The position numbers and the translations under genes are program-made. Of a stretch of 64,000 nt of DNA, positions 6,082 through 43,567 are shown in pieces. The notes under the pieces were generated by a model. That model did not search any database, had not been told where the DNA came from, and saw only the letters and a program-made list of their open reading frames with translations. Source of the stretch: an uncultured Gammaproteobacteria bacterium (lineage in GTDB: Bacteria > Patescibacteriota > Microgenomatia > UBA8517). The stretch is from assembly GCA_964645605.1 (NCBI GenBank), contig CAZYCE010000002.1, forward strand, positions 3,256 to 67,255, in the 5' to 3' direction. The stretch's first letter is position 1. Every line of letters starts with the position of its first letter.

Positions 6082-8130
6082 TTACAGATTTATCTCCTTT
6101 ATCTTGTCCCTAATTTCCGCTGCAAGCTCGAAATTCAGGTCTTGGGCTGCGAGGCGCATTTCGGTGGTCAGATTTTTAACTAGACGTTTTTTCTCCATGG
6201 GGGTCATGGCGTCAATCTCCATATGAGGCAGGCTGGCAAAAATGGGTTCTTTTTCACCAAATATCCAAGGAGCTTTTTCTCCCTCGGACCTATCAATAAG
6301 CTTCTCGCGAATGGGCTTGGTGATGCTTATAGGCGTGATTCCGTGCTTTTTGTTGTAGGCAAGCTGGTACTTACGCCTGCGTTTGACTTCAGAAAGTGCT
6401 CTTTTCATGGAGCCGGTCATTCTATCGGCATACATAATAACGCGTCCCTCAACGTGTCTGGCGGCTCTACCCATCGTCTGGATAAGGGTTACGTCACTTC
6501 GGAGGAATCCCTCTTTATCTGCATCAAGAATAGCCACAAGACTTACCTCCGGAAGATCAAGGCCTTCACGAAGAAGGTTGATTCCTACCAAAACATCATA
6601 TTTTCCGCCCCTAAGATCATCTAAGATGTCCGTGCGGTCCAGAGTGGCCACATCCGAATGCAAATATTGCACCTTTAATCCCTGTTCGGATAAATAAGCA
6701 CTCAAATCCTCCGCCGTTTTCTTTGTAAGGGTGGTAACAAGCGTACGCTGTCCTTTGGCTGTTACTTTTTTGATCTCTTCAATTACATCGGCAACTTGGT
6801 TTTTGATCGGTCTAACATCAACTTCGGGATCCGGAATTCCCGTTGGACGAACCAGTAATTCCACAACCCCCGTCTCTGAGACCCCGCGGGTATAAGTCTT
6901 GGATAGTGATGTTTCCCACTTATTTGGAGTGGCCGAGCTGGCGATAAAATTCGGAATTCTTCTCATAAACTCATCGAATTTCAATGGTCTGTTATCAAGG
7001 GCAGAAGGTAGCCTGAAGCCGTAATCTATTAAAGTCTGTTTTCTGGCAAGGTCACCATTGTACATACCTCGTATTTGCGGAAAAGTCATATGGCTTTCAT
7101 CAACCATTAGTGTCCAGTTATCTTTGTACGGCTCGTTAAAATAGTCCAGAAGTGAAAACGGAGGGTCTCCGGGACTCCTTCCGTCAAAATATCTTGAATA
7201 ATTCTCGATCCCTTTTACGTAACCAACTTCTTTTATCATCTCAAGATCGTAGGTTACTTTTTGAGCAATTCTGTGCGCTTCCAGTTCTTTTCCCTGATTT
7301 TTTAATTCTTTAACTCTAAAATTTAAATCATTCATGATATTTTTAAATACCTCATCATAGTTTTCGGGGTCTGTCATAAAATGTTTGGCAGGATAAAGCA
7401 CGAAGGAAGTAGGATCGTAGCCGTCTTTAGTCGACATTTTTTCGCCGCTAACGGTATTTATCATTTCAATTTTAGCAATCACGTTTTCTGCAAATTCGAT
7501 ATGTACCCCCTGATCAAGATAGGCGGGGTAAACATCGACAGAATTCCCTCTAACACGGAATGTTCCCCTGTCAAACCCGAATTCACTTCTTTCATACTGC
7601 AGATCGACAATTCTATCGATAATTTGTTCTCGGGTGACTTTCATACCCTCCGTTATTTCCAGAACAAAATGGCCGTATTCAAGGGGAGAACCGATATTAT
7701 AAATACAGGAGACGGAGGCTACAACAATGGTATCCGTCCTGGTCAGCAAATTGGTTGTGGCAGCCAGGCGGAGTTTATCTATGGTTTCATTGATATCCGC
7801 ATCTTTTTCAATGTAAGTATCCGTTGATGGAATATAAGCCTCAGGCTGGTAGTAGTCATAATATGAAACAAAGTAAGAGACCGCATTTTCAGGAAAAAAA
7901 TCTCTTAGTTCCTGATAGAGCTGCGCTGCCAAGGTTTTATTATGAGAGATAATCAATGTAGGACGCTGGACTTTGGCTATCACATTCGCCAGGGTAAATG
8001 TTTTACCGGAACCCGTAACCCCAAGAAGAGTCTGGTATTTATCCCCTCGCATAATGGCATTGGAAAGAGATTCCACCGCCTTTTCTTGATCGGGGATCAT
8101 TCTGTATTCAGATTTTAGTTTAAATTTCAT
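6082..8130 (-). CDS. uvrB: Excinuclease ABC subunit B (UvrB)
   Basis: The protein is 682 aa. It carries the TLLGVTGSGKTFTLANVI Walker A motif, the YYDYYQPEAY beta-hairpin region, helicase motifs, and a C-terminal UVR domain (AAEIRDKIKEI). Confidence 0.95.
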   Translation of the reverse strand: MKFKLKSEYRMIPDQEKAVESLSNAIMRGDKYQTLLGVTGSGKTFTLANVIAKVQRPTLIISHNKTLAAQLYQELRDFFPENAVSYFVSYYDYYQPEAYIPSTDTYIEKDADINETIDKLRLAATTNLLTRTDTIVVASVSCIYNIGSPLEYGHFVLEITEGMKVTREQIIDRIVDLQYERSEFGFDRGTFRVRGNSVDVYPAYLDQGVHIEFAENVIAKIEMINTVSGEKMSTKDGYDPTSFVLYPAKHFMTDPENYDEVFKNIMNDLNFRVKELKNQGKELEAHRIAQKVTYDLEMIKEVGYVKGIENYSRYFDGRSPGDPPFSLLDYFNEPYKDNWTLMVDESHMTFPQIRGMYNGDLARKQTLIDYGFRLPSALDNRPLKFDEFMRRIPNFIASSATPNKWETSLSKTYTRGVSETGVVELLVRPTGIPDPEVDVRPIKNQVADVIEEIKKVTAKGQRTLVTTLTKKTAEDLSAYLSEQGLKVQYLHSDVATLDRTDILDDLRGGKYDVLVGINLLREGLDLPEVSLVAILDADKEGFLRSDVTLIQTMGRAARHVEGRVIMYADRMTGSMKRALSEVKRRRKYQLAYNKKHGITPISITKPIREKLIDRSEGEKAPWIFGEKEPIFASLPHMEIDAMTPMEKKRLVKNLTTEMRLAAQDLNFELAAEIRDKIKEINL

Positions 8131-32747: not shown

Positions 32748-33007
32748 GGGGTCGTAGCTCAACTGGCTAGAGCGCTTCCCTGTCAATTGTGGCAGCGTTC
32801 CGAAGTAATTCGGACTGTAAAACCAGGCTAATTCGGGGAAACCTGTAAAATGGCAATCCCGAGCTAAATCCTGAGAGAAATCGAAGGAAAATGTGTAGAG
32901 ACTATATACCTGGCTCCTATTATTAGGATGATGAGATAGTCCGAACTTTTTGAAAACAAAAAGGTGCACGGAAGAGGTTGCGAGTCCGAATCTCGTCGAT
33001 CCCGCCA
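32748..33007 (+). tRNA. tRNA-Asp(GUC) gene interrupted by a 183-nt group I intron in the anticodon loop. Exons are 32748-32783 and 32967-33007, with an encoded CCA.
   Basis: I folded this by hand. The acceptor stem is GGGGUCG/CGAUCCC with a G·U pair. The D arm is GCUC-AACUGGCUA-GAGC and the anticodon stem is CUUCC/GGAAG. The spliced loop is CUGU|CAC, the canonical tRNA-Asp loop. The T arm is GCGAG-UCCGAAU-CUCGU, followed by discriminator G and CCA. Confidence 0.8.
32784..32966 (+). ncRNA. Group I self-splicing intron inside the tRNA-Asp anticodon loop, inserted after U35
   Basis: P1 pairs C80-G95, U81-A94, G82-C93 and U83·G92, giving a U·G wobble at the 5' splice site. P2 is UCCGAA-GUAA-UUCGGA. 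P3 is CCAGG/CCUGG. P4 is UUCGGG/CCCGA. The P7 strands are GUAGAGACUA and AGAUAGUCC, which match the group I R and S consensus. P8 is UCCUA-UUAU-UAGGA. P9 is CUUUUUG-AAAA-CAAAAAG. The intron ends in G (omegaG) at 32966. Confidence 0.75.
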
Positions 33008-33129
33008 AATAACATTATTATTTTCCTCTTGACTTCGATCGTTTCTTACTTTACATTCAGCCTAATTCTAGCTTTATCAAAAAAGAGGCCTGCCACTCTG
33101 AAGCTGAAGGCGAAGGGTGGTGAATAAAT

Positions 33130-42926: not shown

Positions 42927-43344
42927 AGTTTATCACTTTGAAAGCTTTTTGGTGTAAAACATTATTACGTGACCAAATGGACTTTTTGTTTTATGAATTC
43001 CTAGGAAATTTAGATCAAGTATATTGGTAATTTCGCACCCATAGGGAAAAACCCAAAAATCCACAATTGGATTTTATACATGAGTAGAAATTTTTTAATC
43101 GCAGTAGGTTTTGACCCCCTAAAATCTTCCTTACGAGCGAGGGAATCGAAGAAATTTTCTCTAACACTCCCCGCCTCCGCCATTGCAGTCTTAGTTTTAT
43201 GGGAAGTAACAAAATACAAGTTTATTCCCCGTAAAATCCGGATCTTCAGCGGAGAGAATTCCTGGAAGATTCCTTCTCAAAATCATACCAAACCAATAAG
43301 AAAAACAACAACCGCTACAATTTTAACGCAGTTCTTTTTCATTG

Positions 43345-43528
43345 TGGTCGCGTATGGACTCGAACCAGAGACTTTTACAACCCGCCCACCGTACTTAGTG
43401 GATTCGGATGGACTCGGACCATCGACCTTTCGAATGTGAATCGAACGCTCTACCCCTGAGCTACGAATCCCTTTACCAAGGCAGACGCGGTGTAAATGCA
43501 ACGCTCTAACCAACTGAGCTAAGCGACC
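43345..43528 (-). tRNA. tRNA-Val(UAC)-like gene split at position 37/38 by a 110-nt insertion that contains the complete tRNA-Val(CAC). It is either an intron-containing tRNA or a disrupted pseudogene.
   Basis: The 5' half (43528-43491) reads GGUCGCU-UA-GCUC-AGUUGGUUA-GAGC-G-UUGCA-UUUACA. The 3' half (43380-43345) reads U-UGUAA-AAGUC-UCUGG-UUCGAGU-CCAUA-CGCGACC-A. Joined, they give the anticodon loop UUUACAU. There is one mismatch in the T stem and one in the acceptor stem. The insert is flanked by a CCGC/GCGG helix. Confidence 0.35.
43399..43470 (-). tRNA. tRNA-Val(CAC)
   Basis: This is a manual cloverleaf on the minus strand. The acceptor stem is GGAUUCG/CGAAUCC. The D arm is GCUC-AGGGGUA-GAGC. 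The anticodon stem is UUCGA/UCGAA with loop UUCACAU. The T arm is GAUGG-UCCGAGU-CCAUC, which has a non-canonical C55. The discriminator is A. Confidence 0.85.
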
Positions 43529-43567
43529 AATAGTCGTATTTTACCACGAGGCTGTTTTCTCTGCCGA

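Follow-up and report, generated by a model that had tools for sequence, protein, structure and literature searches.

The window (the whole stretch of DNA analyzed here, 64,000 nucleotides long and with a GC content of about 40%) carries one tRNA gene inside another on its minus strand, from 43528 to 43345. A 38-nt tRNA 5′ half is followed by a 110-nt insert and then by a 36-nt 3′ half, and the insert consists of a 20-nt flank, tRNA-Val(CAC), and an 18-nt flank. This anatomy had been put forward in the initial annotation and proved correct to the base, with every piece reproduced at its minus-strand coordinates. The features needed below are as follows.

43538..43567, minus: predicted promoter-like site of the whole unit (TCGGCA, 18 nt, TG-extended TAAAAT)
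43491..43528, minus: outer tRNA 5′ half, positions 1-37, GGTCGCTTAGCTCAGTTGGTTAGAGCGTTGCATTTACA
43471..43490, minus: insert 5′ flank, CCGCGTCTGCCTTGGTAAAG
43399..43470, minus: inner complete tRNA-Val(CAC), called by ARAGORN (RF00005, 67.5 bits, E 1.5e-12)
43381..43398, minus: insert 3′ flank, CTAAGTACGGTGGGCGGG
43345..43380, minus: outer tRNA 3′ half, positions 38-73, delimited by orthology to L001
43283..43342, minus: 19-codon ORF, MKKNCVKIVAVVVFLIGLV and stop, starting where, in relatives, the membrane-protein gene downstream of the tRNA begins
32750-33010, plus: tRNA-Asp(GUC) with a group I intron, split at 35/36

The outer 5′ half contains the acceptor strand GGTCGCT, a D arm, the anticodon-stem strand TTGCA, and the loop letters TTTACA, while the 3′ half runs through T38, TGTAA, AAGTC, the T arm TCTGG-TTCGAGT-CCATA, and CGCGACC to the discriminator A. 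Across the join the two halves read ...TTGCATTTACA / TTGTAAAAGTC..., and the proposed split at the canonical 37/38 position was confirmed, both insert boundaries being unambiguous against the ortholog in L001. The insertion is exact, without target duplication at the junctions. Each flank sequence occurs only once in the window, and the two are partly complementary: CCGC (43490-43487) in the 5′ flank pairs with GCGG (43385-43382) in the 3′ flank, as had been noticed before, and past a 2-nt bulge the helix goes on as CUGCC/GGUGG, formed by CTGCC (43484-43480) and GGTGG (43390-43386). The inner tRNA-Val(CAC) is indeed complete and well folding; it has the T loop UCCGAGU (C55), does not encode CCA, and in its core matches L020, a free-standing tRNA-Val(CAC) from Woesebacteria, at 94% identity across 63 nt. 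ARAGORN also calls the artificially joined outer halves as tRNA-Val(UAC), in agreement with the first reading of them. When it was run over the locus with introns of up to 200 nt and lowered thresholds the outer gene was never called in situ, and an Rfam scan at E<=10 returned there only the inner tRNA and two chance matches. The sole promoter-like site at the locus lies upstream of the outer 5′ half, and no separate promoter fits the 20-nt flank ahead of the inner tRNA. The nested arrangement is not a product of chance: shuffled versions of the window are expected to hold the pattern of an outer D arm, 19-49 nt, and a second D-arm start 0.00 times, and 67 of the 74 positions of the outer halves agree with those of an actual orthologous tRNA.

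The ORFs adjoining the locus encode HPRT and a methyltransferase. Among the neighbors in the window are HPRT, an IMPDH/GuaC-like protein, PurA, signal peptidase I, ParB, L27, L21, and FtsW, with glycosyltransferases on the other side of the locus, and one homolog of the HPRT comes from a Patescibacteria MAG (P0022). The tRNA-Asp(GUC) gene, which ARAGORN does not call in the window, is split by a 190-nt intron at 32774-32963 (RF00028, 83.6 bits; junctions CTTCC CTGT / intron / CAC GGAAG) matching the Patescibacteria 35/36 group I type described in PMC13011429. A T loop with UCCGA, and thus C55, was seen in the inner tRNA-Val, in this tRNA-Asp (about 32975-32991, plus), and in the Val tRNAs of L013 at 2839-2913 and 616-689. 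Position 55 of tRNA is otherwise near-universally U; from its distribution, C55 would seem to be characteristic of the lineage, and the Psi55 synthase might have been lost or altered along with it.

The interrupted gene and its orthologs

The same locus could be compared in six relatives (L001, L010, L005, L013, L256, and L257), whose HPRT proteins are 79, 78, 68, 59, 51, and 49% identical to that of the window. In all six the tRNA-Val(CAC) gene is uninterrupted and lies immediately upstream of HPRT, on the same strand, and in L001 and L005 a TGGTAAAAT box (TG-extended TAAAAT) lies at the same distance upstream of the uninterrupted ortholog as in the window. In L258 the expected tRNA-Val stretch, at about 1240-1340, is masked by about 100 N right after ...GGACGACTAGCTCAGC.

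There were seven differences between the joined outer halves and the closest ortholog, that of L001, and all seven are G/C to A/T. In the 5′ half, which is orthologous to the 5′ part of the L001/L010 tRNA-Val(CAC), they are G7T, which breaks pair 7-66, and C34T, which turns the anticodon CAC into UAC. In the 3′ half they are C41T, by which a G-C pair becomes G.U; G45A, in the variable loop; C49T and G65A, which together make a compensatory U-A pair; and G64T, which breaks pair 50-64. Mismatches had been reported for the acceptor and T stems, and both are present (U7.C66 and C50.U64), along with the G29.U41 wobble. By comparison L001 and L010 differ from each other in the T stem only, which is fully paired in both. 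The outer cloverleaf of the window folds at -16.8 kcal/mol and is not the minimum free energy (MFE) structure, whereas that of the ortholog, at -28.7 kcal/mol, is; and ARAGORN loses the window's outer gene at a lower stringency than it does the ortholog or the outer gene of L129. The locus thus has both a syntenic uninterrupted ortholog and structure-damaging substitutions, as would a disrupted pseudogene. The close match to that ortholog and the uniform direction of the changes argue that the “Val(UAC)” is a Val(CAC) gene that has been interrupted and slightly damaged and shows the first signs of decay, and by its anticodon the insert is predicted to supply the same isoacceptor as the gene that it interrupts. 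That the outer gene is still 90% identical to the ortholog and has one compensatory T-stem pair implies either that the insertion is recent or that some constraint is left.

The flanking sequence has also changed. In L001 and L005 the tRNA is followed by a gene for a membrane protein of 222-223 aa with a weak Ferric_reduct match; tblastn found no homolog of it in the whole window, and the 19-codon ORF is probably, from its position, a remnant of this gene. About 420 bp of the window (42927-43344, minus), where the relatives have the membrane protein, are without a convincing gene. Loss of this neighbor in the lineage of the window indicates that the locus has been rearranged.

A family of tRNA genes within tRNA genes

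A scan of GTDB genomes with the inner anticodon arm gave at least 120 loci. Among the GTDB matches listed most were free-standing Val(CAC) genes on contigs named as Patescibacteria lineages, two (L129 and L017) were nested as in the window, and two (L080 and L085) were degenerate versions of the same arrangement. An architecture pattern composed of the outer D arm GCTCAGYTGGTTAGAGC, 19-49 nt, and the inner start TAGCTCAG picked exactly the nested cases among 135 loci, and in JGI metagenomes it returned at least 120 loci, on contigs without taxonomy. The fixed D-arm sequences bias the sample toward Val/Ile-type tRNAs, and the statistics on intact outer genes are partly affected by ascertainment. 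There were at least 41 distinct loci in which an 8-17 bp inverted repeat surrounds a complete inner tRNA within an outer anticodon loop, and among the matches listed the inner and outer tRNAs are usually for the same amino acid (Val CAC/UAC/GAC, Ile GAU, Ile UAU). Of these 41 outer genes at least 20 have 16-17 of 17 stem pairs intact; their sequences are diverse and their T loops canonical. The nested loci are not recent copies of one another, since among the matches listed the outer genes average 75% identity to each other and the inner genes 73%.

The inverted repeats of the flanks are absent from 106 free-standing Val genes, and on that ground the idea that such repeats are a general feature of tRNA genes in these lineages was rejected. 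In what we call class A the base of the helix is conserved as CA/CCYGCC...GGCGGG/T, and in class B as TTCA-CCCCG...CGGGG-CARG; beyond the conserved GC-rich base the helix covaries between loci. Among wobbles and mismatches in the helices there were 9 G.U and 7 A.C, with no strand bias. The junction motif at the loop/helix boundary of class B looks, from its conservation, like a recognition site. A model of single excision was tried for class B, written as TT(N)A-TTCA-CCCCG...CGGGG-CARG-Y, and abandoned when no pair of cuts left a canonical Val anticodon loop. In class B (L150, L175, L183, L196, L143, and L211) the initial two anticodon-like letters of the outer 5′ side vary with the inner anticodon, TTTA occurring with tac, TTGA with gac, and TTCA with cac, and the 3′ side reads CA-RG-Y, as though it had two bases extra. 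Boxes of the integron attC type (GTTRRRY/RYYYAAC) were looked for by eye in class B helices and dismissed, being in the wrong order and missing from several members.

In 9 of 28 cases the outer and inner gene of a locus have the same anticodon stem, compared with 1.9% for pairs from different loci, and acceptor stems are no more alike within a locus than between loci, which suggests that the middle parts of the two genes have undergone gene conversion or have co-evolved. Iterated partial tRNA copies stand beside nested units in L143, L145/L248, L169, and L209, for example as a repeated 3′ flank plus tRNA 3′ half, and their repetition suggests recurrent recombination at these loci. The free-standing tRNA-Val(CAC) of L020 (Woesebacteria GW2011_GWB1_39_12, 7124-7186) resembles the window's outer lineage in its acceptor 5′ strand (GTCGCG...) and the window's inner tRNA in its anticodon and T arms; recombination between outer and inner gene in a nested locus would yield a hybrid of this kind. 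In L247 a unit of about 250 nt is apparently a three-level nest, with tRNA-Val(GAC) in a tRNA-like unit in another tRNA, and at every level a CACCTT.../...AAGGTG helix is stacked directly on the anticodon stem, leaving no anticodon loop.

Within this family the window falls into a sub-class defined by its flanks. Its 184-nt unit is collinear with that of L129/L236, which in L129 is 179 nt long, over 173 nt at 75% identity. The 5′ flank motif CC(N)G(Y)CTGCC is common to the window, L216, L206, L149, L129, L165, and L017, and a 3′ flank ending ...GGCGGG before T38 is common to the window, L129, L165, L017, L085, and L080. Among the matches listed only L129/L236 have a canonical outer gene in this sub-class, with a 37/38 junction in L129 that reads CTGCATTCACA / TTGCAGAGGTC. 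The outer gene of L206 has a chimeric acceptor, and those of L017, L216, L149, and L165 have a plain hairpin instead of the T arm, with acceptor and anticodon stems that still pair perfectly. As predicted from these structures, most outer genes in the sub-class cannot be tRNAs.

Gene order links several nested loci as well. A nested tRNA-Val adjoins signal peptidase I in L206, L216, L149, L223, and L017 and lies about 1 kb from it in L210, and in L206 signal peptidase I is followed by ParB, L27, L21, and FtsW, as in the window. The signal peptidase I proteins at nested loci are 36-43% identical to that of the window. HPRT had been considered as the ORF common to nested loci, which was wrong; the shared ORF is signal peptidase I. 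The closer relatives of the window are all un-nested, and nesting in the window is therefore most simply a later gain. We infer that the insert entered the lineage of the window once this had diverged from its sequenced relatives, with the conserved tRNA halves as the probable route of recombination. A less simple candidate history would have one ancient gain followed by several precise losses, and it would imply a long constraint on the outer gene.

By its structure the insert is one of a recurrent family, that of tRNA-carrying inserts with inverted repeats at their flanks, set in tRNA anticodon loops of Patescibacteria-type genomes, and the window has all the features by which we define this nested tRNA-in-tRNA family. 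The initial annotation had regarded the arrangement as not a known one, and indeed no description of a tRNA-in-tRNA architecture was found in open-access full text. Nor does the architecture fit any known class of intron or mobile element. When the window and 27 family members were formally scanned for a bulge-helix-bulge (BHB) of 3-nt bulge, 4-bp helix, and 3-nt bulge, no arrangement was found that would leave a 7-nt loop, and BHB motif matches all told numbered 15, against 16.6 expected in shuffled flanks. Group I and group II intron models had no match at the locus at Rfam E<=10; a catalytic core would not fit an insert with only 38 nt of non-tRNA sequence, the 5′ exon has A37 as its last base and not the U of the group I end rule, although the insert does end in G, and at 110 nt the insert is not of group II type. 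The adjacent ORFs contain no recombinase gene, neither outer half nor flank is repeated in the window, and the locus has no integrase gene and no attL/attR duplication of the kind that marks tRNA-targeting integrative elements. It also departs from MITEs and DNA transposons, having no target duplication and repeats that are conserved only over the first 5-6 bp. A phage origin was dropped as the inner anticodon arm had no match in viral contigs.

Readings of the locus

Two readings of the outer gene had been offered at the outset, a spliced 37/38 intron and a decaying interrupted gene, and for the window it is the second that the evidence favors. The relatives are uninterrupted, the UAC anticodon is itself one of seven changes that all run from G/C to A/T, pairs 7-66 and 50-64 are broken, the cloverleaf is destabilized, neither an archaeal-type nor any other splicing signal was found, outer genes in the same sub-class are defective, and the neighboring gene has been lost. 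On balance we consider it probable that the inner tRNA-Val(CAC) is the product of the locus and that the outer gene survives as a relic or, at best, in a structural role as leader and trailer. In the ancestor, a tRNA-Val(CAC) gene would have received the 110-bp insert precisely between positions 37 and 38, the insert being a complete tRNA-Val(CAC) between two short, mutually complementary flanks. The whole unit would be transcribed from the promoter of the old outer gene, and RNase P would free the inner tRNA on the 5′ side, while a 3′ nuclease with CCA addition would complete the other end, as in the ordinary end-processing of tRNAs. The inner tRNA would then take over the job of the interrupted gene, and this would be why the insertion was tolerated. 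The outer halves, no longer decoding, would drift under A/T-biased mutation, with the apparent UAC as one outcome, and for the present may be retained as a leader and trailer that pair around the inner tRNA. One point would not be expected of pure relics, namely that about half of the outer genes listed keep 16-17 of 17 stem pairs though their sequences have diverged.

The intact outer genes are what keeps an intron-like reading open at the level of this recurrent, structured family, even if for the window it seems rather improbable. The 110 nt would be removed and the outer halves ligated by a bacterial pathway, possibly one in which RNase P and RNase Z cut the transcript, the flank helix guides the trimming, and an RNA ligase joins the ends, to yield both tRNA-Val(CAC) and tRNA-Val(UAC). 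This would account for a split exactly at 37/38, for joined halves that pass ARAGORN, for flanks that pair beside both junctions, for the conserved junction motifs, and for the many members (at least 20 of 41) with nearly complete outer stems; a double cloverleaf with its stalk is feasible at -51.2 kcal/mol, the MFE being -62.7, and a UAC anticodon would be useful to the cell. It has to contend with the absence of a BHB or of a group I or group II intron, and we know of no protein-dependent tRNA splicing in bacteria. Moreover, the outer gene of the window is destabilized with two stem mismatches and gained its UAC by the same C to T drift as its other changes, outer genes are usually redundant since they share the anticodon of the inner tRNA, no single excision gives class B a canonical loop, and L247 has no loop left at all.

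It could be instead that the outer sequence serves in cis, its pairing enclosing the inner pre-tRNA as a leader-trailer processing stalk or as a stabilizer, much as leader and trailer pair in rRNA operons. The retention of acceptor and anticodon stem pairing in L017, L216, L149, and L165, where the T arm has become a plain hairpin, is consistent with such a scaffold, as are the specificity of the 8-17 bp flank helices to nested inserts and the placement of the only promoter-like site ahead of the outer gene. Free-standing tRNAs of the same lineages, however, need no stalk, that of the window is short and interrupted, and the wobbles and mismatches in the helices are of both types without strand bias, so that they do not tell an RNA-level helix from a DNA repeat, and we regard a scaffold as unlikely. 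Anticodon loops are known integrase targets, and the iterated partial tRNA copies and the terminal inverted repeats of the inserts would suit a tRNA-targeting integrative element with its att site in the anticodon loop, or the remnant of a transposon such as a MITE. With an insert of only 110 bp, no duplicated tRNA 3′ part, target duplication, or adjacent recombinase in the window, and repeats that covary outside their GC-rich base as transposase-bound ends do not, such an origin is very improbable. Finally, the source is a metagenome-assembled contig and might have been misassembled or misbinned, but an independent Logan assembly (L009) agrees with it, at 100% identity, across 8,109 nt that take in the locus, making a single-assembler artifact unlikely, and the same architecture occurs in more than 40 unrelated contigs among the matches listed, such that we give an artifact next to no weight.

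Comparison with known systems

Bacterial tRNA genes are not known to be interrupted by anything but self-splicing introns, and the architecture seen here is stereotyped though without known splicing signals, and is found both in metagenome contigs and in Patescibacteria MAGs. Tentatively, these loci might represent an undescribed Patescibacteria-type class of intervening sequence, in which a complete tRNA on an 8-17 bp stalk sits in the anticodon loop of a tRNA of the same family, is sometimes nested recursively, and recurs beside signal peptidase I/ParB, with outer genes that either mature or are the sites of a self-compensating mobile insertion. If both tRNAs mature in members with intact outer genes, a protein- or RNase P-dependent route not known in bacteria would be needed, and bacteria would have an unrecognized pathway of tRNA splicing or ligation. 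If the outer genes do not mature, an insertion that brings along a copy of what it disables can pass among essential genes without cost. Either way, standard annotation reports the inner tRNA alone and misses or miscounts the outer genes, which matters for tRNA inventories of reduced genomes.

Several known systems share parts of this architecture. The 37/38 tRNA introns of archaea and eukaryotes, processed by EndA/TSEN and RtcB, occupy the same site and likewise have pairing near both junctions, and the intron of the Haloferax tRNA-Trp, with its C/D-box RNA cargo, resembles the window in that an intron carries a second functional RNA. The window differs from them in its bacterial host, in having no BHB, and in a cargo that is a complete tRNA which end-processing could release. 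The 35/36 group I introns of Patescibacteria (PMC13011429) occur in the same phylum, also target the anticodon loop, and escape standard annotation in the same way. The present insert ends in G as they do, but it has no RF00028 match and only 38 nt of non-tRNA sequence, and its 5′ exon ends in A. Among the split and permuted tRNA genes of Nanoarchaeum equitans, Caldivirga, and Cyanidioschyzon merolae, split-tRNA halves are held together by a GC-rich complementary stretch, as the outer halves would be here after removal of the inner tRNA, and joining extensions of this kind are found in the window as CCGC/GCGG and CUGCC/GGUGG. The halves in the window are not separate loci joined through a BHB, however, but are co-transcribed 110 nt apart on one strand, in a bacterium.

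Recursive nesting, apparently to three levels in L247, recalls twintrons and nested mobile elements, from which these loci differ in having no ribozyme or transposase and in that the recurring unit is a tRNA between inverted repeats. A tRNA pseudogene created by insertion would be similar in its intact ortholog, A/T-biased substitutions, and stem mismatches. It would differ in that the insertion at the present locus restores the same isoacceptor, and in that the locus is one of a recurrent structured family and not a one-off.
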